This document shows, piece after piece, positions 8,468-52,672 of a DNA stretch of 64,000 nucleotides (its first letter is position 1; the number at the start of each line of letters is the position of its first letter). Both the position numbers and the translations under genes were made by a program. The stretch lies in the NCBI RefSeq assembly GCF_988243305.1, contig NZ_OZ547136.1. The stretch is one strand, 5' to 3'. The notes beneath the pieces are model-generated. The model had not been told where the DNA came from and did no database searches. It worked only from the letters and a program-made list of their open reading frames with translations.

Positions 8468-8543
8468 TCCTCTGTAGTTCAGTCGGTAGAACGGCGGACT
8501 GTTAATCCGTATGTCACTGGTTCGAGTCCAGTCAGAGGAGCCA
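8468..8543 (+). tRNA. asnT: tRNA-Asn (anticodon GTT); insertion site of the HPI
   Basis: 76-nt TCCTCTGTAGTTCAGTCGGTAGAACGGCGGACTGTTAATCC...GGAGCCA; identical to three further copies in this window. Confidence 0.95.
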
Positions 8544-8923
8544 ATTTTCTGTTTTCTTGCATCCTTGCGAATCTTTATCTGATGTTGATTCAACAGGTTA
8601 GTGTGAAAACTCTTCTCGGTGCATTTTGATTTTACCCTACGCATCGGGAAAAATTGGTGGTCAAATCTGGGGTCAGGTTAGTTCGATAATGGAGTGACCC
8701 CCATATATCCCTTACCGACGCAAAAATCCGCACCCTCAAGCCTTCTGATAAACCCTTTAAAGTCTCCGATTCTCACGGTCTGTATCTGCGGGTCAAGCCG
8801 GGTGGCTCCCGCCACTGGTATCTCAAATACCGTATTAGCGGTAAAGAATCCCGCATTGCGCTGGGTGCCTATCCAGCCATCTCCCTGTCTGATGCGCGAC
8901 AGCAACGTGAAGGTATCCGTAAA

Positions 8924-9967
8924 ATGCTGGCGCTGAATATCAACCCGGTACAGCAGCGGGCTGCTGTACGTGGCTCACGAACACCGGAGAAAGTTTTTAA
9001 AAACGTGGCGCTGGCGTGGCATAAAAGTAACAGGAAATGGTCGCAGAACACCGCCGACCGTCTGCTTGCCAGCCTGAACAATCACATCTTTCCGGTCATC
9101 GGGAACCTACCTGTATCAGAACTTAAACCCCGTCATTTCATTGACCTGCAGAAAGGGATCGAGGAAAAAGGTCTGCTGGAGGTTGCGTCCCGCACACGGC
9201 AGCACCTGAGTAACATAATACGCCATGCGGTCCATCAGGAGTTAATCGATACGAACCCTGCAGCAAACCTTGGCGGCGTGACCACACCTCCTGTCAGACG
9301 GCACTATCCTGCCCTGCCGCTGGAGCGGCTGCCTGAACTGCTTGAACGTATTGGGGCATATCATCAGGGCCGTGAACTGACCCGGCATGCCGTTCTGCTG
9401 ATGCTGCATGTGTTCATTCGCTCCAGTGAACTGCGTTTCGCCCGCTGGTCAGAGATTGATTTCACAAACCGAGTCTGGACGATACCCGCGACGCGAGAAC
9501 CCATTATTGGCGTGCATTATTCCGGCCGCGGGGCAAAAATGCGAATGCCGCATATCGTCCCCCTCTCAGAACAGTCCATCGCCATTCTGAAACAGATTAA
9601 GGATATCACCGGTAATAATGAACTGATCTTCCCCGGCGACCATAACCCGTATAAGCCAATGTGTGAAAACACGGTCAATAAGGCACTGCGGGTGATGGGT
9701 TACGACACGAAAAAGGATATCTGCGGTCACGGCTTCCGGGCAATGGCATGCAGTGCGCTGATGGAATCGGGTTTATGGGCAAAGGACGCAGTAGAACGCC
9801 AGATGAGTCATCAGGAGCGCAATACCGTGCGCATGGCTTATATTCATAAGGCAGAGCACCTGGAAGCCCGCAAAGCGATGATGCAGTGGTGGTCGGATTA
9901 TCTGGAAGCATGCCGAGAATCTTATGCACCGCCTTATACAATTGGTAAAAATAAGTTTATCCCATAG
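8924..9967 (+). CDS. int: P4-like tyrosine integrase of the HPI, possibly start-defective
   Basis: ATG-initiated ORF of 347 aa; the same frame continues upstream to 8690 encoding an integrase N-terminal arm domain (SLTDAKIRTLKPSDKPF...GSRHWYLKYRISGKESRIALGAYP) but with ATA where the start would be expected. Confidence 0.75.
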   Translation: MLALNINPVQQRAAVRGSRTPEKVFKNVALAWHKSNRKWSQNTADRLLASLNNHIFPVIGNLPVSELKPRHFIDLQKGIEEKGLLEVASRTRQHLSNIIRHAVHQELIDTNPAANLGGVTTPPVRRHYPALPLERLPELLERIGAYHQGRELTRHAVLLMLHVFIRSSELRFARWSEIDFTNRVWTIPATREPIIGVHYSGRGAKMRMPHIVPLSEQSIAILKQIKDITGNNELIFPGDHNPYKPMCENTVNKALRVMGYDTKKDICGHGFRAMACSALMESGLWAKDAVERQMSHQERNTVRMAYIHKAEHLEARKAMMQWWSDYLEACRESYAPPYTIGKNKFIP

Positions 9968-9999
9968 TATACTAACGAATCCCACACTCTGGCAAATTA

Positions 10000-10160: not shown

Positions 10161-11465
10161 CTACACCATTAAATAGGGCGCAATGCTCGCTAATTTCTCC
10201 CGGGTTTCTGTCAGTTCGCGTTCCGGCGTAGATTGCGCGATGATTCCCGCCCCCGCCTGTATCCAGCAGCGCTGGCTATCCTGAAATACGGAACGCAGAA
10301 CTAGCGCCGCATCAAAGCGCGTATCGTCCAGCAGCAGGATTGCGCCGGAATAAAGCTCTCGCGGCGTCTTCTCAATTTGCATAATCGCGTTCAGAGCAGC
10401 ATTTTTAGGGATACCTGAGGCGGTAATCGACGGAAACAGCACGGTAAACGCATCCCAGGCATCCTTGTTTTCCGCAAGCTGACCGCTCACGCCAGACCCC
10501 AGATGCTGAACGCTGCCGCGCTGGCGAACCGACATTAAATCTTCAACCACCACGCTGCCCGGCTGGCAAACAGCCTCCAGTTCAGCAATAGCTTCTTTGA
10601 CAGAAAGGATATGCTCAAGCACCTCTTTACTGTCGTGCAGCAGTTCTGCCTCTTTCGCCTTATTATGCTCCGGGTTTCCCATGCGATCGCGGGTGCCCGC
10701 AAGCGGTTCAGTGACCACTTTATTGCCCGTCACTGACATCACCAGTTCCGGGCTAAAGCCCAGCGCTTCGCGTCCTTCCTGACGGAACATAAACGAGCGC
10801 ACAGGCGTGTTTGCCTGCCGCCCGTATAACAGCGTGGCGGGCATATCAATCCGCGATGGCAGGGGAATGGCGCGCGAGACAATCACTTTGACATACTCGC
10901 CACGGCGGATCTCCGCAACGGCGCGCGCAACCTGTTGTTTATATGCCTCACCATTGAGGGCGGTATCCACCGCCAGTGGTGCGTTCTGCGTCGTTGTACC
11001 GGCCTCTTTTACCCACTCGCACAAACGTCGGCACCCGTCGGCGGAGTCCGCATAAACGGTGACATTTCCCTTTTCAAAAATAAGTTCTTCACGGGGAACG
11101 GTTAACGTCAGCAGCGGCCACTCCCCGGCGTTAAAGGCAATCCCCCGCGCATGCGCCGCAAAGTTGAACCCAACCTGTCCATATACCCGACGTCCTTTCA
11201 CCTGAGGATGCGCCATAAAACGACGCGCGCAGTCGGCAATGGAATCCACCGCCCATTTTTGCTCCCCGGCATCATCAATAAATGTCGCCTGCGTTCCGTC
11301 GGCATTAATGTGCAGCCGTGCCTGGCACCCTTTGCCTAAATACCAACAGGGTTGACGCTCATAGACATAACACTCTTCTTCTGCGAACTGGCGTAAAACG
11401 CCAGAAATCGTCGGTAGCCATTGTTCCTCTGGTAATGCCAGATGTAGAAATTCACTGATTTTCAT
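10161..11465 (-). CDS. ybtS: salicylate synthase (chorismate-utilising)
   Basis: 434-aa ORF matching recalled YbtS/Irp9; first HPI gene after int in the canonical order. Confidence 0.9.
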   Translation of the reverse strand: MKISEFLHLALPEEQWLPTISGVLRQFAEEECYVYERQPCWYLGKGCQARLHINADGTQATFIDDAGEQKWAVDSIADCARRFMAHPQVKGRRVYGQVGFNFAAHARGIAFNAGEWPLLTLTVPREELIFEKGNVTVYADSADGCRRLCEWVKEAGTTTQNAPLAVDTALNGEAYKQQVARAVAEIRRGEYVKVIVSRAIPLPSRIDMPATLLYGRQANTPVRSFMFRQEGREALGFSPELVMSVTGNKVVTEPLAGTRDRMGNPEHNKAKEAELLHDSKEVLEHILSVKEAIAELEAVCQPGSVVVEDLMSVRQRGSVQHLGSGVSGQLAENKDAWDAFTVLFPSITASGIPKNAALNAIMQIEKTPRELYSGAILLLDDTRFDAALVLRSVFQDSQRCWIQAGAGIIAQSTPERELTETREKLASIAPYLMV

Positions 11466-11492
11466 CCCTTACCTCTCTGTGTTATTCCCGGA

Positions 11493-12773
11493 TCAATCAA
11501 TTGTGCTTGTCATCAGTTCTCTTGCCGAATGCAGCCGGATATAAGCAACCCACGCCGCCAGCAACGTGAATGCCCCGGCAAACAGGAAGCAGGCCGCATA
11601 GCCAAAATGTTGAGCAACAACGCCACCGATAACGCCTGCCAGAATGGCGATTGCCGCGTCAGTACATTGAAAGAGGGTGAAGTCGACACCGGCCTGCAAA
11701 GGCGATGAAAGCGACATCAGCGTGGCGTAAAGACAGACCAGCGCGCAGGCCAGCGAAATGGACTGGACAATGACCAGACACTGGAGAATCTGCAGCAGCA
11801 GATGACCCGGCGCCATCATGAGCGTCATCACCACCGCCAGCAGCGCGATCCCCTGGACGCCATAAGCCGTCAACAGCGCTCTGCCGGGTGAGGTGTATTT
11901 CATCAGCAATCCGCCGGCCAGCGTTCCTGCTATGCCCGCTGCAATATTGCCGCCGCTGAACAGCGCGCCCAATGCGGACATGCTCAACCCATGATCCAAC
12001 AACAGCGGTGCCAGAAGAGGCAGCACAAACCGCATGCCTGAATTCAGCATCAATACCAGCAGTAAGCCCAGGCACGCCTGCTTCCTCCTTAGCGCATAAC
12101 CTAACGCCGGAACATGCGGGATAGTCGCTGTTCGCGTCGGCTCCGTAATGCGCCACAGCGGGAGTGACAGCGCCATAATCAGCACCGCCATCATCAGCAT
12201 GGCGACAGGCCAGCCGGATGCCGCCGACAGCATCAGGAACACCCCGCCGCCGCACATCATTCCCAGATAGCTGCCGCCGACCTGCACGCTGTTTCCCCAG
12301 CCGTAACCCGTGCGGGTCAGTTGATCGACACAAAAGCCGTCGCTGGCGATATCAATGGTGGAGGCGACCGTGCCTGCCACCATAAACAGAACAAATAACG
12401 CGACGATTTGCGTATCGGGGAATCCCCCTTCTCGCCCAAACCAGCCAATCGCTGCGGCAATAGTCAGGATCGCCGCTAGCGCGACCTGACCACGCAGGAT
12501 TAACATGCGGGAACGGCGTTCCTGGCTACCGGGCGGAAGCCGCCAGCGCTCGATCCACGGCGCCCAAATAAACTTCAGCGCCCAGGGCAGCATAAACAGG
12601 GTTGTCGCACCGGCAAGCGCCAGCGAACCGCCAGCAGCGCGCACCAGCGCGGGTAAGGACTGCATAGACAGCGCCGATACCAGACTCTGCGTCACATAGA
12701 CGCCGGCAATAGCAAAAATCACCCGCCCGGTCGTCAACGTCAGCGGTTTCACATTCGACTGAACATCACTCAT
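11493..12773 (-). CDS. ybtX: MFS-type inner-membrane protein of the yersiniabactin system
   Basis: Polytopic membrane ORF; start set at MSDVQSN (426 aa), overlapping the ybtQ stop; the ORF track extends to 12896. Confidence 0.85.
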   Translation of the reverse strand: MSDVQSNVKPLTLTTGRVIFAIAGVYVTQSLVSALSMQSLPALVRAAGGSLALAGATTLFMLPWALKFIWAPWIERWRLPPGSQERRSRMLILRGQVALAAILTIAAAIGWFGREGGFPDTQIVALFVLFMVAGTVASTIDIASDGFCVDQLTRTGYGWGNSVQVGGSYLGMMCGGGVFLMLSAASGWPVAMLMMAVLIMALSLPLWRITEPTRTATIPHVPALGYALRRKQACLGLLLVLMLNSGMRFVLPLLAPLLLDHGLSMSALGALFSGGNIAAGIAGTLAGGLLMKYTSPGRALLTAYGVQGIALLAVVMTLMMAPGHLLLQILQCLVIVQSISLACALVCLYATLMSLSSPLQAGVDFTLFQCTDAAIAILAGVIGGVVAQHFGYAACFLFAGAFTLLAAWVAYIRLHSARELMTSTID

Positions 12774-14568
12774 GCACCCACTCTCCAGACGCGGAACCCC
12801 CGTCGTCGCGCCACACGCGCGCGGCCATTTGCGCCTGCCACAGCGCCTGATAACGTCCATGATGTGAGAGCAATTGCGCATGAGTACCCTGCTCAACCAC
12901 CTGTCCCTCTTCCATCACCAGAATGTTTCCGGCCCCGGCGATGGTGGATAAACGGTGAGCGATGATAATCACCGTCCGGTTGTGAACCAGGTTATCGATC
13001 GCTTTTTGCACCGCCAGCTCGCTTTCAATATCCAGCGCGGCAGTCGGTTCATCGAGAATGACGACCGGCGCGTTTTTCAATAACGCTCTGGCAATGGAAA
13101 TCCGCTGGCGCTCGCCGCCCGATAGCTGGCCGCCCATCTCTCCCATTGGCGTCAGCCAGCCTTGCGGAAGACGGGAAATAAACTCAAGGCACTGCGCCGC
13201 GCGGGCGGCCTCTTCTACCTCCTGCCGCGTCGCCTGTGGGCGCGCGATACGGATATTCGCCAGCAGCGTGTCATCAAACAGCCAGACATCCTGGAAAACA
13301 ACAGAAATCAGGCTATTGAGCTGTTCCGGCGTCAGGCGGCGAATATCGACGCCGCCAATAGAAATCTGCCCTTGCTGCGGATCGGCATAGCGCATTAACA
13401 GTTTGGTGACGGTAGTTTTGCCTGCGCCGGAGGCACCCACCAGCGCGCTCATACTGGCTGCCGGGAACGTCAAAGAAACATGATTAAGCGCGTGGCCGTC
13501 GCCTTCTTCGTAGCGATAGCTGACGTTGTCAAAGCGGATATCGTAACGTTCCGGCATCTCGCTTTGCTCTGCGACGGGAAGCGGTGCTATCGCCATAAAC
13601 TGCTCAATCCGTTGCAGGGCGCTGGCGATCAGTTCCACAACCGAGGTGTAGCTGATAAACATCGCCATCGGTTCTGCGAAGCGCATAATCATCGCGACGG
13701 CGGCAATCAAAAAGGCGAGGTTCAGAGTGCCCGTCACTACCCAGACGATCCCGGATAACACCACCACCTGTAGGCCCAACTCCACGACGCTGGCGATCAG
13801 CATCGTCGCGCCAGCGCCCTGACGGTGAGTGCGGGTCTGTAAGTTTTCCAGCGCATTGAAATGCGCCAGCAGCGCCCGGCTTTTATCGGCATCGCTGCCG
13901 CAGGTGCGCAATACCATCATCCCCTGAGCAAATTCAACGATATCGCCGCTCAGACGCTGGTGCGCTTCCCCCAGCGTCTGCATTTGTCGCCGCATCGCCG
14001 GGCGGCGCCAGTAATAAAACGGCACCAGCAGAGGGAAGATCAGCAACATCACCAGCCCCAGCCGCCAGTCTATCCACAATGTCGCCAGCGACGCCGTCAG
14101 CGGCGTGACAATGGTGAGCAGCAAAATATTGGCTATCGCAATAACATAATTGAGGTTTTCATCCACGCTGCCCAGCAGCAAGGCGTTCATTTCACCCGCC
14201 CTGCCGCGCTGGAGCTTCTCCAGCGGCACGCGGCGTAACTGCTCGCCAAGTCGCAGGCGCAACTCATGGGTAGCCTGCGCCAGATGACCACGGTATTCAA
14301 AGCCCAGGCCATACCAGCGTAGCACCAGCGTCACAATTGCGGCGACGCTGAAGGCCATAGCCCAGTTAAGAAGTTGCGGCGCGTCTCCCCGTAACAGCGC
14401 ATCAATGATCGGATAAAGACAGGCAAAGGCGATCCCCTGCATGAATGCCGCCAGCAACAGCGCCAGCATACTGCGTCGCAGCATCCTGGCCTGACTGCCA
14501 ACGCTGGAGATAAGCTGGCGCCAGATGACGCGCCAGGCCAGGTTATCCGCAGGATTATTGTCTTTCAT
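12766..14568 (-). CDS. ybtQ: ABC transporter, fused permease/ATPase, yersiniabactin iron import
   Basis: Walker A GASGAGKTT and signature LSGGERQR; start set at MKDNN (600 aa) with upstream GGTGG; overlaps ybtP stop. Confidence 0.88.
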   Translation of the reverse strand: MKDNNPADNLAWRVIWRQLISSVGSQARMLRRSMLALLLAAFMQGIAFACLYPIIDALLRGDAPQLLNWAMAFSVAAIVTLVLRWYGLGFEYRGHLAQATHELRLRLGEQLRRVPLEKLQRGRAGEMNALLLGSVDENLNYVIAIANILLLTIVTPLTASLATLWIDWRLGLVMLLIFPLLVPFYYWRRPAMRRQMQTLGEAHQRLSGDIVEFAQGMMVLRTCGSDADKSRALLAHFNALENLQTRTHRQGAGATMLIASVVELGLQVVVLSGIVWVVTGTLNLAFLIAAVAMIMRFAEPMAMFISYTSVVELIASALQRIEQFMAIAPLPVAEQSEMPERYDIRFDNVSYRYEEGDGHALNHVSLTFPAASMSALVGASGAGKTTVTKLLMRYADPQQGQISIGGVDIRRLTPEQLNSLISVVFQDVWLFDDTLLANIRIARPQATRQEVEEAARAAQCLEFISRLPQGWLTPMGEMGGQLSGGERQRISIARALLKNAPVVILDEPTAALDIESELAVQKAIDNLVHNRTVIIIAHRLSTIAGAGNILVMEEGQVVEQGTHAQLLSHHGRYQALWQAQMAARVWRDDGGSASGEWVHE

Positions 14569-16357
14569 TTTCCACCACCTCTTCCTGTGTTCCACCCGGC
14601 ACCCAATGCTGCGCCTGCTGATAGTGTTGCCAGAGCCGTTGATACAGGCCGCCCTGCGCCAACAGTTGCGTATGGTTCCCCATTTCCCTGAGCTGTCCGT
14701 CGGAAAACAGCAATATCACATCGGCCTGAGTCACCATTGAGAGACGATGCGCGACCATGATGACCGTCCGGCCACGCATGGCCGCCGCGAGCGCCTTGAT
14801 AAGCGCCGCTTCGTTTTCCGGGTCAGCAAACGCCGTCGCCTCATCGAGCACCAGGATGGGGCGATCCTGCAAAAGCGCCCGGGCGATAGTAATGCGCTGC
14901 CGCTGGCCGCCGGAGAGAAATACCCCACGTTCCCCGACTCGAGTGTTGTAACCTTCTGGCAGAGCGCTAATAAAATCATGGGCCTGCGCCACTCTGGCCG
15001 CCGCTATAACCGCCTCCAGCGGCGTATCCGGCGCGCCCAGACGAATGTTATTGGCTATCGTGTCGGCAAAAAGGAAGTTGTCCTGAAACACAAACGAGAG
15101 TTGCTTCATCAGGGTGTCCGTCTGCATATCACGCAGATCCACGCCGCCAATACGGATATGGCCTTTGTCCGGGTCGGCGTAACGCAGCAGCAAGCGCGCC
15201 ACGGTGCTTTTTCCGGCGCCGCTTGGCCCGACCAGCGCCACAATTTGCCCGGCAGGCACATGAAAGCTCACCTCCTGCAACGCGGCGCCAGTACGCGCTT
15301 GCGGATAATGAAAGCTCACCTGCTCAAAGGTAATGCTCGCCTCTTGCGGCTGCTGGTCAGACTGCGGCAGCGATAACTCCGGCATCGCGAGAACCTGATA
15401 AATACGCTGAATGCTTAAACGCGTTTGCGCGACCAGGTTATTGAGCATCATCATTGGCATTACGGCTTCGGCCATTCCGCTGCCCAGCAGTAAAACGGCC
15501 ACCCACGCGATAAAATCGAAACTGCCATAGTGCAACAGGCCGTATCCCGACCAGATCAGGACAAACAGGGTCGGGAGAGGATTCAGAATCGAGAAGGAAA
15601 AACGCGCTGAAAAACCGGCTTTGCGATACCAGGTTTTGAGCACATCGACCCACTCTTCAAGGGCGCGTTGATAGCGCAAAAAACTGGTGCTGCCGCTATC
15701 AAACGTTCTCACCACGGGCATGGCCTGCACGAACTCAATAACCGCCGCGCTAACCTGCTCGCGCGCCTTATGATAACGCTGAGCCATATTTTCCGAACGC
15801 TGGCGGGCGAGCACGAGAACAACCGATCCAAACGCCAGTACCCCCAGCGTCGCGATTGCCAGCCGCCAGTCCAGCCAGAACAAGATAACGATTGTCGCCA
15901 GCGGCATGATGATCGCGCGGGCATAGAGCGGCGTGCTGTCGGCCACAAAAATATGTAACGACTTCACGTCATCCAGCATCACTTTCGCCACTGACCCGCT
16001 GCCCATTTGCTGTAACACGCCAGGCGGAAGCTGCAATGCTTTACGGGCTAACCTGCTGCGCAGAATGTTCTCCAGATGAAAAGCCGCGTAATGAGAGGTG
16101 TTGAACGCCTGTAAGCGCAGAACAAAAGTTAAGACCACGCAGCCGATCACGCCGCCCAGCGGCCAGGCCGGAATAGCGTCAGGCGTCGCGCGAATGTCAC
16201 GCAGGCTCCACGCCAGAAAAAGGAGCGCCCCCAGGCTGGTTAATGCCGCCAGCCCCGCCAGCGCCATAGCTAAAATAACCTTCCTGCGAACCGGTGTAAT
16301 CACCTGCCAGAGAGGAAATCGGGACAGCGATTCAGTATTGGATGATTGAGATGACAT
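14555..16357 (-). CDS. ybtP: ABC transporter, fused permease/ATPase, yersiniabactin iron import
   Basis: 600-aa ORF; Walker A GPSGAGKST and signature LSGGQRQR; N-terminal transmembrane domain. Confidence 0.9.
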   Translation of the reverse strand: MSSQSSNTESLSRFPLWQVITPVRRKVILAMALAGLAALTSLGALLFLAWSLRDIRATPDAIPAWPLGGVIGCVVLTFVLRLQAFNTSHYAAFHLENILRSRLARKALQLPPGVLQQMGSGSVAKVMLDDVKSLHIFVADSTPLYARAIIMPLATIVILFWLDWRLAIATLGVLAFGSVVLVLARQRSENMAQRYHKAREQVSAAVIEFVQAMPVVRTFDSGSTSFLRYQRALEEWVDVLKTWYRKAGFSARFSFSILNPLPTLFVLIWSGYGLLHYGSFDFIAWVAVLLLGSGMAEAVMPMMMLNNLVAQTRLSIQRIYQVLAMPELSLPQSDQQPQEASITFEQVSFHYPQARTGAALQEVSFHVPAGQIVALVGPSGAGKSTVARLLLRYADPDKGHIRIGGVDLRDMQTDTLMKQLSFVFQDNFLFADTIANNIRLGAPDTPLEAVIAAARVAQAHDFISALPEGYNTRVGERGVFLSGGQRQRITIARALLQDRPILVLDEATAFADPENEAALIKALAAAMRGRTVIMVAHRLSMVTQADVILLFSDGQLREMGNHTQLLAQGGLYQRLWQHYQQAQHWVPGGTQEEVVENERQ

Positions 16358-16434
16358 GGGAGTAACTGAATTTCCTGATGAATTTTTACGGACGCCAAAA
16401 ACGACAATTCAGGGTGGCGTTCTGAGAATTAATG

Positions 16435-16456
16435 TGAATAATAACCATTATCAATA
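16435..16456. promoter_or_regulatory. Fur-box-like operator in the divergent ybtP/ybtA promoter region
   Basis: gaataataaccattatcaataa resembles the GATAATGATAATCATTATC Fur consensus. Confidence 0.55.
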
Positions 16457-16523
16457 ACTCATCTACCCCATTCGGTTCTATTTATACCCGCATTGGTCTA
16501 AGCCACAGGGAGATAACCAGGTC

Positions 16524-17483
16524 ATGACGGAGTCACCGCAAACGCAATCTGAAATCTCTATTCACCAGTTGGTGGTCGGGAAACCTGCAAACGATGGCAA
16601 TATTCCTGCTCAGTGTGAACTGCTGCGCTGTTCGTTGCAGGAAGGTATGGATATTTTGCTCTGGAGGGGCCATTTTGCGCGGCCAGAGACGTTGCAGCTA
16701 CACGACGATCTGGGCAGGATTAACTTCTCGTGCATCCTGGAAGGCACATCGCGCTTTGCGATTCAGGGACTCCGGCGCCACACCGACTGGGAGCTTGCGC
16801 GCAATCGCCATTACATTACCCATACGCCAGACTGTCGCGGCAGCGCCTCCTATTGTGGCCGATTCGAGAGCATTACCCTCTCCTTCAGCCCTGAAACCCT
16901 CGCGCTGTGGGTGCCGGATATTAGCGCGGTCATTAAGAATAAGATCGACTCCCACTGCTGTTGCCAGCAGCAGCGTTGTAATGCTGAAACCCACTTAACG
17001 GCTCAGGCCTTGCGTCACGCGCTGATGCGCATGCACGGCGGCTTCAGTCATGAACAAAAGCCGTCGACGCTATGGTTGCAGGGGCAAAGTCTGGTCATGC
17101 TCAGCCTGGTGCTGGATGAACATCGCGAAGACGCCAGTTGCCTCTCCTGCCACTTCAACCCGATGGAACGCCAGAAACTGCTGCGGGCGAAGGATCTGCT
17201 GCTGGCTGATCTGACGCAAGCGCCGGGCGTCGCGGAGCTGGCCAGAGAGTCCGGTCTGAGCGTTCTCAAAATTAAGCGAGGCTTCCGCGTTCTGTTCAAC
17301 AACAGCGTCTATGGCCTGTTTCAGGCTGAACGAATGCAGGAAGCCAGAAGACGCCTGGCCAACGGCAATACCTCCGTCATGACGGTGGCGGCCGATCTGG
17401 GCTATGCCAACGCCAGCCATTTCTCTGCCGCCTTCCAGAAACAGTTTGGCGTAACTCCTTCGACCTTTAAACGCGGGATGTAA
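16524..17483 (+). CDS. ybtA: AraC-family transcriptional activator of yersiniabactin genes
   Basis: 319-aa ORF with C-terminal AraC-type HTH; divergent from ybtP as in the canonical HPI. Confidence 0.9.
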   Translation: MTESPQTQSEISIHQLVVGKPANDGNIPAQCELLRCSLQEGMDILLWRGHFARPETLQLHDDLGRINFSCILEGTSRFAIQGLRRHTDWELARNRHYITHTPDCRGSASYCGRFESITLSFSPETLALWVPDISAVIKNKIDSHCCCQQQRCNAETHLTAQALRHALMRMHGGFSHEQKPSTLWLQGQSLVMLSLVLDEHREDASCLSCHFNPMERQKLLRAKDLLLADLTQAPGVAELARESGLSVLKIKRGFRVLFNNSVYGLFQAERMQEARRRLANGNTSVMTVAADLGYANASHFSAAFQKQFGVTPSTFKRGM

Positions 17484-17514
17484 CCGGGGTCGCGCCCCCC
17501 TAAACTCCTCCCTG

Positions 17515-17552
17515 ACAGAGGCCCGGATACCCCATCCGGGCCTCTGTTCTTT
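17515..17552 (+). terminator. rho-independent terminator downstream of ybtA
   Basis: Stem acagaggcccgg / ccgggcctctgt followed by tctttcc. Confidence 0.55.
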
Positions 17553-17565
17553 CCGCCTGTTACCA

Positions 17566-17603
17566 ACCCGAAACGGGCATAAATAAACCCGTTTCGGGTA
17601 GCA
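17566..17603. promoter_or_regulatory. conserved palindromic repeat (YbtA-binding RS-type) upstream of irp2
   Basis: acccgaaacgggcataaataaacccgtttcgggtagca; a near-identical copy lies upstream of fyuA at 36849-36886. Confidence 0.7.
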
Positions 17604-17607
17604 TCCA

Positions 17608-17630
17608 ATTGTTAATAATTATTATTCTCA
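17608..17630. promoter_or_regulatory. Fur-box-like site in the irp2 promoter
   Basis: AT-rich gttaataattattattctcat between the palindromic repeat and the irp2 ribosome-binding site. Confidence 0.5.
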
Positions 17631-17673
17631 TATGAGTAATGCTTTTCGGTAAGACGTGCCATCAGGAGGAAGA

Positions 17674-20600
17674 ATGATTTCTGGCGCACCATCTCAGGAT
17701 TCGCTGTTACCGGACAACCGCCACGCGGCTGATTACCAACAATTACGCGAGCGGCTCATACAGGAACTGAATTTAACGCCGCAGCAGTTACATGAAGAGA
17801 GCAACCTGATCCAGGCCGGCCTGGATTCCATAAGATTGATGAGATGGTTACACTGGTTTCGTAAAAATGGCTACCGCCTTACCCTTCGCGAGCTGTATGC
17901 CGCCCCCACGCTGGCGGCATGGAACCAGTTAATGCTCAGCCGGTCGCCGGAGAACGCGGAAGAAGAAACGCCGCCCGACGAATCATCCTGGCCGAACATG
18001 ACCGAAAGTACCCCCTTCCCATTGACGCCAGTACAGCACGCCTACCTGACGGGCCGCATGCCGGGGCAGACGCTTGGCGGCGTGGGTTGCCACCTGTATC
18101 AGGAGTTTGAAGGCCATTGTCTGACGGCGTCGCAGCTGGAGCAGGCCATCACGACCTTGCTGCAACGCCACCCAATGCTGCATATCGCCTTTCGCCCCGA
18201 CGGGCAGCAGGTCTGGCTACCGCAACCTTACTGGAACGGCGTCACCGTCCATGATTTACGCCATAACGACGCTGAAAGCCGCCAGGCCTATCTGGACGCA
18301 CTGCGCCAGCGCCTGAGCCACCGTCTTTTACGCGTGGAAATCGGCGAAACGTTTGATTTTCAGCTGACGCTCTTGCCGGACAATCGCCACCGCCTCCATG
18401 TCAATATTGACCTGCTGATTATGGATGCCTCCAGCTTTACGCTTTTCTTCGATGAGCTTAACGCCCTGCTGGCCGGAGAATCGCTGCCGGCTATCGACAC
18501 CCGCTATGATTTCCGCTCGTATTTGCTGCACCAGCAGAAGATCAATCAACCACTGAGAGACGACGCGCGCGCTTACTGGCTGGCGAAAGCATCGACGCTT
18601 CCCCCCGCGCCCGTCTTGCCGCTGGCCTGCGAACCCGCCACGCTATGTGAAGTCCGTAATACCCGACGCCGCATGATTGTCCCGGCAACACGCTGGCACG
18701 CCTTTAGCAACCGGGCCGGCGAGTATGGCGTGACGCCGACAATGGCACTGGCGACCTGTTTTTCTGCCGTGCTGGCTCGCTGGGGCGGCCTGACGCGTCT
18801 GCTGCTTAACATCACCTTATTCGACCGCCAGCCGCTGCACCCGGCGGTTGGCGCGATGCTTGCCGACTTCACCAATATTCTTCTGCTGGATACCGCCTGC
18901 GATGGCGATACCGTCAGCAACCTGGCGCGTAAAAACCAGCTCACGTTTACGGAGGACTGGGAGCATCGCCACTGGTCCGGCGTCGAATTACTCCGTGAAC
19001 TCAAACGCCAGCAGCGCTACCCCCACGGCGCCCCGGTGGTATTTACCAGCAATCTGGGGCGTTCCCTCTACAGCAGCCGCGCAGAATCGCCGTTGGGCGA
19101 GCCGGAATGGGGCATCTCGCAAACGCCGCAGGTCTGGATAGATCATCTGGCGTTCGAGCATCACGGCGAGGTCTGGCTACAATGGGACAGCAACGACGCG
19201 CTGTTCCCTCCGGCGTTAGTCGAAACATTGTTCGACGCCTACTGCCAGTTGATTAACCAACTCTGCGATGACGAAAGCGCCTGGCAAAAGCCGTTCGCAG
19301 ATATGATGCCCGCCAGCCAGCGCGCGATACGCGAACGGGTCAACGCCACCGGCGCCCCCATTCCCGAAGGCTTGCTGCATGAAGGCATTTTCCGTATCGC
19401 TCTGCAACAGCCGCAGGCGCTGGCGGTAACGGACATGCGTTATCAGTGGAATTATCATGAGCTGACAGACTATGCCCGCCGTTGCGCGGGCAGGTTAATC
19501 GAGTGCGGGGTTCAGCCCGGCGATAATGTGGCTATCACGATGTCGAAAGGCGCAGGACAACTTGTTGCGGTTCTGGCCGTCCTGCTGGCCGGGGCGGTTT
19601 ACGTTCCGGTTTCGCTGGATCAGCCTGCCGCACGGCGCGAGAAAATCTACGCTGACGCCAGCGTCCGGCTGGTGCTCATTTGTCAGCACGACGCCAGCGC
19701 CGGGTCAGACGATATTCCCGTCCTTGCCTGGCAGCAGGCCATTGAGGCGGAGCCGATCGCCAACCCGGTAGTACGCGCCCCCACGCAACCGGCCTACATT
19801 ATCTACACCTCCGGCTCTACCGGTACGCCGAAAGGGGTAGTCATTTCTCACCGGGGAGCGCTTAACACCTGTTGCGATATCAATACCCGCTATCAGGTTG
19901 GCCCGCATGACAGGGTGCTGGCCCTCTCCGCCCTACATTTTGATTTATCGGTTTACGACATTTTTGGCGTACTGCGCGCGGGCGGCGCGCTGGTGATGGT
20001 GATGGAAAATCAACGGCGCGATCCTCACGCATGGTGTGAGCTGATCCAGCGCCATCAGGTCACGCTCTGGAACAGCGTCCCGGCGCTGTTCGATATGCTG
20101 CTGACCTGGTGTGAAGGTTTCGCCGACGCCACGCCGGAAAACCTGCGCGCAGTGATGCTTTCCGGCGACTGGATCGGGCTTGACCTCCCCGCCCGTTATC
20201 GGGCCTTCCGGCCACAAGGACAATTTATCGCGATGGGCGGTGCCACCGAGGCGTCTATCTGGTCTAACGCCTGCGAAATTCACGACGTCCCCGCCCACTG
20301 GCGCTCCATCCCTTACGGTTTTCCGCTAACCAACCAACGCTACCGGGTGGTGGATGAACAGGGCCGGGACTGCCCTGACTGGGTGCCGGGTGAATTATGG
20401 ATTGGCGGCATTGGGGTCGCGGAAGGCTATTTCAACGATCCCCTGCGTAGCGAGCAGCAATTTTTGACGCTCCCGGACGAGCGCTGGTATCGCACCGGCG
20501 ATCTCGGCTGCTACTGGCCAGATGGCACAATCGAGTTCCTCGGTCGTCGCGACAAGCAGGTCAAAGTCGGAGGATATCGCATCGAGCTGGGCGAAATCGA

Positions 20601-48364: not shown

Positions 48365-48440
48365 TGGCTCCTCTGACTGGACTCGAACCAGTGACATACG
48401 GATTAACAGTCCGCCGTTCTACCGACTGAACTACAGAGGA
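48365..48440 (-). tRNA. asnW: tRNA-Asn (anticodon GTT)
   Basis: Exact reverse complement of the 76-nt asnT sequence; gene name assigned from recalled K-12 order. Confidence 0.93.
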
Positions 48441-50188: not shown

Positions 50189-50264
50189 TCCTCTGTAGTT
50201 CAGTCGGTAGAACGGCGGACTGTTAATCCGTATGTCACTGGTTCGAGTCCAGTCAGAGGAGCCA
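50189..50264 (+). tRNA. asnU: tRNA-Asn (anticodon GTT)
   Basis: 76-nt sequence identical to asnT, followed by a terminator hairpin. Confidence 0.93.
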
Positions 50265-52596: not shown

Positions 52597-52672
52597 TCCT
52601 CTGTAGTTCAGTCGGTAGAACGGCGGACTGTTAATCCGTATGTCACTGGTTCGAGTCCAGTCAGAGGAGCCA
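52597..52672 (+). tRNA. asnV: tRNA-Asn (anticodon GTT)
   Basis: 76-nt sequence identical to asnT, followed by a terminator hairpin. Confidence 0.93.

Follow-up and report, generated by a model that had tools for sequence, protein, structure and literature searches.

Our analysis indicates, with a high degree of confidence, that the control regions of irp2, fyuA and ybtP/ybtA, which belong to the four yersiniabactin operons, share one composite architecture, namely an operator for the AraC-type regulator YbtA and a Fur box. Sequence matches, their statistics, conservation and geometry were computed here, Fur binding, the dependence on YbtA and the ybtA start site were taken from published papers, and we inferred the assignment of -35 and -10 elements as well as the mode of activation. 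The repeats and AT-rich boxes in these regions are the already described YbtA and Fur sites, and the finding is thus real but ordinary. What our analysis adds is a third copy of the repeat pair, the fixed geometry of the sites, and their conservation across distant taxa, including loci that apparently encode uptake only.

In the window, i.e. the whole 64-kb stretch of DNA that was analysed, the E. coli high-pathogenicity island for yersiniabactin is inserted at tRNA-Asn. More than 2,200 complete E. coli genomes share bases 16200-17800 with 100% identity, and the RefSeq labels for this DNA in them are ybtP, ybtA and irp2. The gene order ybtS-X-Q-P / ybtA / irp2-irp1-ybtU-T-E / fyuA was confirmed by the RefSeq annotation of identical E. 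coli DNA (see table). Two details of the initial annotation had to be corrected: the span 16358-17655, which it gave for the feature, is mostly ybtA coding sequence, and irp2 starts at the ATG listed below and not at a GTG at 17656. Behind ybtA lies a strong hairpin that is likely an intrinsic terminator and would set ybtA apart from the irp2 control region.

Features of the yersiniabactin control regions and of the island in the window. Repeat pairs are scored in bits with the cross-taxon weight matrix, Fur boxes as matches to the 19-bp consensus.
Feature	Position	Strand	Sequence or detail	Score or source
Repeat pair before irp2	17566-17603	+	ACCCGAAACGGGCATAAATAAACCCGTTTCGGGTAGCA; units 17566-17581, 17587-17602	44.5 bits
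Repeat pair before fyuA	36849-36886	+	ACCCGAAACAGGTTGAAATAAACCCGTTTCGGGTAGCA; begins 10 nt past ybtE stop codon	42.7 bits
Third, diverged repeat pair, facing ybtP	16461-16498	minus	GACCAATGCGGGTATAAATAGAACCGAATGGGGTAGAT; units 16483-16498, 16462-16477	47.9 bits, top match
irp2 Fur box	17611-17629		GTTAATAATTATTATTCTC	15/19 minus strand, 14/19 plus strand
fyuA Fur box	36895-36913		AGAAATAGTTATCATTTTC	13/19
Fur box common to ybtP and ybtA promoters	16434-16452		GTGAATAATAACCATTATC	15/19
irp2 -10-like hexamer	17620-17625		TATTAT	
fyuA -10-like hexamer	36904-36909		TATCAT	
ybtP -10-like hexamer	16443 to 16438	minus	TATTAT	
ybtA -10-like hexamer	16446-16451		CATTAT	
Hairpin behind ybtA (likely terminator)	17514-17548	+	15-bp stem, then UUCUUUCC	-29.3 kcal/mol, z = -6.6
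tRNA-Ser, mtfA (ahead of island)				Annotation of one genome with identical DNA
tRNA-Asn (ahead of island)	8468-8543		followed by tyrosine integrase	Annotation of one genome with identical DNA
ybtS, ybtX, ybtQ, ybtP		minus		RefSeq annotation
ybtA, AraC-type regulator presumed to bind the repeats	16524-17483	+		RefSeq annotation, AraC-family helix-turn-helix matches
irp2	start 17674		ATG	RefSeq annotation
irp1, ybtU, ybtT				RefSeq annotation
ybtE	end 36838			RefSeq annotation
fyuA	start 36969		ATG	RefSeq annotation

Some further features of the island region were observed. The island and its tyrosine integrase (~8705-9967) lie directly behind the first of four tRNA-Asn genes in the window, the others being at 48365-48440, 50189-50264 and 52597-52672, and a 104-nt repeat family found by the repeat search of the window (D1) spans three of these four genes. 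The longest open reading frame for ybtP starts at 16357 on the minus strand (600 aa) and has no Shine-Dalgarno sequence. The RefSeq start at 16267 on the same strand (570 aa) has AGGAAGG 11 nt upstream, and if this start is right, the ybtP leader would extend for ~165 nt after the Fur box.

The initial annotation had reported a near-identical 38-bp element upstream of irp2 (17566-17603) and of fyuA (36849-36886). Its coordinates are right, and the two copies are identical at 34 of 38 positions. The repeat search reported them as a 42-nt pair with 88% identity (family D13), and the degenerate pattern gave two matches in the window against 0.00 expected from 100 shuffles. When species-representative genomes were scanned for the exact pattern, matches occurred only in Raoultella and two Klebsiella species and none in Yersinia, and no Yersinia entry appeared among the listed members of the YbtA protein cluster; a search of paper texts for the repeat sequence itself returned unrelated matches only. 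Two near-identical copies in one island might also be functionless leftovers from the duplication of a promoter segment or from a small REP- or MITE-like mobile repeat. The likeness ends at the element borders, however, and past the Fur box the flanks can no longer be aligned. Neither the pattern scan nor the weight matrix found copies other than the three sites in the 64-kb window, and the element is kept with its Fur-box spacing before transport and synthesis genes beside YbtA homologues in eight taxa, which leaves such an origin with a probability close to nil.

Both copies listed in the initial annotation are real, but a third one, on the minus strand facing ybtP, had been missed. It was found by aligning the three intergenic regions, and behind it come an 8-bp gap and then a Fur box, an order also seen at irp2 and fyuA. 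Compared with a consensus made from the two good copies, it matches at 26 of 38 positions, which is the best non-self match in the window and, taken alone, a borderline score that was reached by one of 50 shuffles. Judged by its sequence the third copy is real, because a weight matrix derived from other taxa picks exactly this site. The matrix was built from 13 sites at distant loci with YbtA homologues, with no window site in the training set. Scanning the 64 kb, which the initial annotation had named as a way to check its reading, returned exactly three sites and no false positives, with scores of 42.7-47.9 bits as compared to 8.7 bits for the best unrelated match. The irp2 and fyuA copies read on the reverse strand gave about 25 bits, and the maximum across 40 random sequences had a mean of 9.4 and a highest value of 21.7 bits. 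Two Burkholderia sites outside the training set scored 42.9 and 32.3 bits.

The comparison loci came from a search for YbtA homologues, which yielded eight loci with 46-79% protein identity, namely from Serratia symbiotica, Pluralibacter gergoviae, Pectobacterium, Xenorhabdus bovienii, Erwinia rhapontici, Burkholderia oklahomensis, Xanthomonas hydrangeae and Agarivorans. The same bipartite element is present in intergenic regions of all eight, beside the ybtA homologue. Across nine taxa, 19 of 21 repeat pairs have a Fur-box match of 12-16/19 within 2-9 nt behind them. The gap measures 6-9 nt in 15 of these pairs and 2 nt in four, and we read the 2-nt gaps as a register shift by one hexamer, with the AT-rich array being scored one hexamer upstream. 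When the divergent regions from seven taxa were aligned, 21 of 23 invariant columns fell within the repeat pair and the Fur box, which together are the only conserved block in these regions. Among YbtA and its homologues (nine proteins), 48 of 71 invariant columns fall in residues 219-316, the helix-turn-helix DNA-binding part, which is consistent with a conserved operator.

It is conceivable that the repeats are bound by a different regulator, with YbtA acting elsewhere or indirectly. The element adjoins a ybtA homologue in all eight comparison loci, however, it is conserved together with the YbtA DNA-binding domain, and several papers assign the repeats to YbtA, so that we regard a different regulator as extremely improbable. 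Specifically, 'repeated sequences' in the irp2, fyuA and irp6 (ybtP)/ybtA promoters have been described as YbtA sites, together with auto-repression (PMC5634559), and in UTI89 the leaders of all island operons hold Fur boxes and pseudo-palindromes that were taken as YbtA sites (PMC8725597). Descriptions of YbtA sites and of Fur control for yersiniabactin promoters of E. coli are thus available (PMC5634559, PMC8725597, PMC8805033).

Several of the comparison loci showed individual features. In Serratia symbiotica (11136-15379 of locus L001) the irp2 homologue was called with a length of no more than 928 aa, and a transposase gene lies behind it; the island looks degraded there, with three operators and their Fur boxes still intact. 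The YbtA homologue of Xenorhabdus bovienii (L004) lies beside cobalamin-synthesis genes and is flanked by repeat pairs at 9934-9971 and 10976-11013, and no siderophore transport or synthesis genes were found within 10 kb. A repeat pair ahead of the MFS gene in Erwinia rhapontici (L005, 10966-11003; 39.5 bits) has no Fur-box-like sequence behind it (best 9/19) and is the sole clear repeat pair of this kind.

Each pair consists of two units of roughly 13-16 bp whose centres lie 21 bp apart, which corresponds to two helical turns. The core of a unit is CCG-N5-CGGGT, often with AG directly behind it, and the best conserved positions of the pair are A at 6, GGG at 10-12 and GGGTAG at 31-36. An internal inverted repeat, as noted in the initial annotation, is present in the irp2 and fyuA copies, where the units are near-perfect reverse complements (12/13 complementary positions), but it does not hold as a property of the sites in general. 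Over all sites the units are about as similar in direct (7.95/13) as in inverted orientation (8.10/13), because each unit is itself partly palindromic, and the corresponding values outside the island lineage are 7.7/13 and 7.3/13. Inverted symmetry and hairpin potential are not a conserved property of the element.

This bears on whether the element could act as an RNA or DNA hairpin, i.e. as a structure that terminates the upstream transcript (ybtA or irp2-ybtE) or stabilises its 3' end. The irp2 copy (-21.7 kcal/mol, z = -6.1) and the fyuA copy (-20.2 kcal/mol, z = -5.5) do fold well, and the latter, being so close behind the ybtE stop codon, probably belongs to the tail of the irp2 operon transcript. 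However, neither copy has a U-run behind it on the coding strand, the terminator-like matches being short sub-hairpins on the opposite strand only, and ybtA owns a stronger likely terminator upstream of the irp2 copy. Furthermore, the ybtP copy, with the top matrix score, cannot fold (-6.3 kcal/mol, z = -0.6), the complementarity of the units beyond the island lineage is no better than their direct identity, and no Rfam family matched within 16000-18000 at E-values up to 1. A hairpin function of the element is very unlikely on these grounds; the fyuA copy alone might still have a secondary role as a hairpin where the irp2-ybtE transcript has its 3' end.

Returning to the composite operator, its second part was scored by matches to the 19-bp Fur consensus GATAATGATAATCATTATC. 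Sites with at least 15/19 matches are expected 0.18 times per window and three were seen. The initial annotation had placed a Fur-box-like sequence within about 10 bp of each of its two copies, which was borne out at 7 bp for irp2 (15/19) and 8 bp for fyuA (13/19), and its third Fur-like site, in the divergent ybtP/ybtA region, was recovered at 16434-16452 (15/19), 8 bp from the end of the ybtP repeat. About 10 sites with 13/19 or better are expected per window, so that 13/19 alone is not significant; the fyuA box, weak by itself, is credible only through its fixed position beside the repeat. Its TTATCATT core and 8-bp gap are as in the boxes behind the repeat pairs of other taxa. The published irp2 Fur site, 44 bp ahead of the start codon, is exactly the one at 17611-17629 in the window, and the ybtA Fur site published for the Salmonella plasmid pESI is one base off the one at 16434-16452 (PMC11225919). 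In the same study, fragments with the ybtA and irp2 promoters, taken from pESI and from Y. pseudotuberculosis, gave gel shifts with purified Fur (PMC11225919). No Fur gel shift for the fyuA promoter was found in the literature searched. Overlapping Fur-box-like matches of up to 15/19 also cluster at 58458-58514, outside the island; comparison with a related genome placed them amid insertion-sequence remnants, and they are probably a chance product of AT-rich sequence.

The divergent region also bears on the control of ybtA itself. In pESI the ybtA transcript was mapped to start at a C that lies five bases past the Fur site (PMC11225919) and corresponds to 16458 in the window. By homology, the third repeat pair would cover ~+4 to +41 of the ybtA transcript, in agreement with the two YbtA sites reported in the ybtA 5' leader (PMC8805033) and with the published auto-repression. 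The published ybtA promoter holds three repeated sequences, the third of which (RS3) lies beyond the Fur box. We found two units, and a half-site matrix gave no match of at least 3 bits for a third in 16358-16433. An inverted repeat between the Fur box and ybtP, ACGCCA (16392-16397) and TGGCGT (16415-16420), sits where the literature puts RS3 and is not recognised by the half-site matrix; Serratia symbiotica has this inverted repeat as well (L001, about 9863-9895), and the plus-strand RNA fold of this segment was no better than that of shuffles. Just ahead of the ybtA start codon, ACAGGGA (16505-16511) matches the CsrA motif ACARGGA, which has been reported in the ybtA leader (PMC8805033).

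The arrangement of these sites gives an indication of how the promoters might work. All three Fur boxes contain a -10-like TATyAT hexamer at offset 9, and with a 17-bp spacer the putative -35 element coincides with the final six bases of the pair (GGTAGC, GTAGCA and GTAGAT), which match TTGACA poorly. A scan with the sigma-70 consensus gave no promoter match at irp2, fyuA or ybtP/ybtA, which fits activator-dependent promoters, and the assignment of -35 and -10 elements is accordingly provisional. YbtA, an AraC-type activator, is reported to respond to yersiniabactin. At irp2, fyuA and ybtP it would occupy the -35 region and recruit RNA polymerase, and iron-loaded Fur would cover the -10 element and block the polymerase. 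In the divergent region a single Fur box would cover the back-to-back -10 elements of ybtP and ybtA, and the repeat pair predicted to activate ybtP would be located just downstream of the ybtA start site, which might account for the repression of ybtA by its own product. In island-negative hosts YbtA has been reported to activate its own promoter instead of repressing it (PMC5634559), and auto-regulation therefore appears to depend on context. Activation by YbtA combined with repression by Fur, as proposed in the initial annotation, is supported by the published YbtA sites, the Fur gel shifts and the independent matrix.

A module of two units 21 bp apart, a gap of 7-9 bp and a Fur box occurs beside YbtA-like regulators in beta- and gamma-proteobacteria. 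Taking these loci together, we tentatively suggest, with more doubt than confidence, that the module is not peculiar to the Yersinia island and is kept beside YbtA-like regulators also where synthetase genes are missing. Loci in Pectobacterium (L003, 6107-14955), Erwinia rhapontici (L005, 4250-14424) and Agarivorans (L008, 4304-13097) each encode a YbtA homologue and a TonB-dependent receptor, along with two ABC transporter genes and one MFS gene, and have the repeat pair and Fur box, and no synthetase or polyketide synthase was found within 10 kb at any of the three. They may serve to take up a yersiniabactin-like siderophore that other bacteria produce. The module was absent from the papers covered by our limited literature search. 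If it is unpublished, it would provide a cross-taxon operator consensus of about ACCGAWWCGGGTAG-N7-ACCGAWWCGGGTAG, and if the suggested reading is true, it would offer a way to predict regulons for the uptake of yersiniabactin-like siderophores from other bacteria.

What was re-identified here from raw sequence is a textbook case of dual control, in which a pathway-specific AraC-type activator is combined with global repression by Fur. It concerns a virulence-associated siderophore system and carries little weight as a discovery. The practical gain is that all three operators in the window are now cleanly annotated, and the cross-taxon matrix could be reused for annotating YbtA-type regulons elsewhere.

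The window agrees with the published yersiniabactin system in the island, its genes and its three control regions. Its Fur sites match published ones exactly or with one base changed, two YbtA sites are located in the ybtA leader in both, and activation of irp2, fyuA and ybtP together with auto-repression of ybtA is described there as we read it for the window. RS3 of the published ybtA promoter was not located in the window by sequence similarity; otherwise there is no substantive difference. The primary YbtA footprinting papers are reportedly those of Fetherston, Bearden and Perry 1996 and two papers by Anisimov et al. 2005. Agreement with footprinted sites in Yersinia, which the initial annotation had also named as a check, is supported here through secondary sources.

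AraC at araI and RhaS at rhaBAD are AraC-family activators whose site overlaps the -35 region. Like the YbtA operator, their operators consist of two ~17-bp sites whose centres are separated by 21 bp, and the site nearer to the promoter overlaps a weak -35 element. The sites are direct repeats for AraC and inverted repeats for RhaS, whereas the YbtA units fit both arrangements equally. A further likeness concerns pyochelin, as Michel et al. 2005 (cited in PMC8639528) are said to have described a PchR-box and a Fur box at pyochelin promoters of Pseudomonas aeruginosa. By functional analogy PchR may be regarded as a counterpart of YbtA, being likewise an AraC-type, siderophore-responsive regulator encoded within its cluster. 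The sequence of the PchR operator differs from that of the YbtA operator. The logic of the two systems appears similar, with a bipartite operator near -35, repression by Fur and a regulator that activates the genes for synthesis and for the receptor and represses its own, and YbtA, PchR and AlcR group together in a published tree (PMC7600106).
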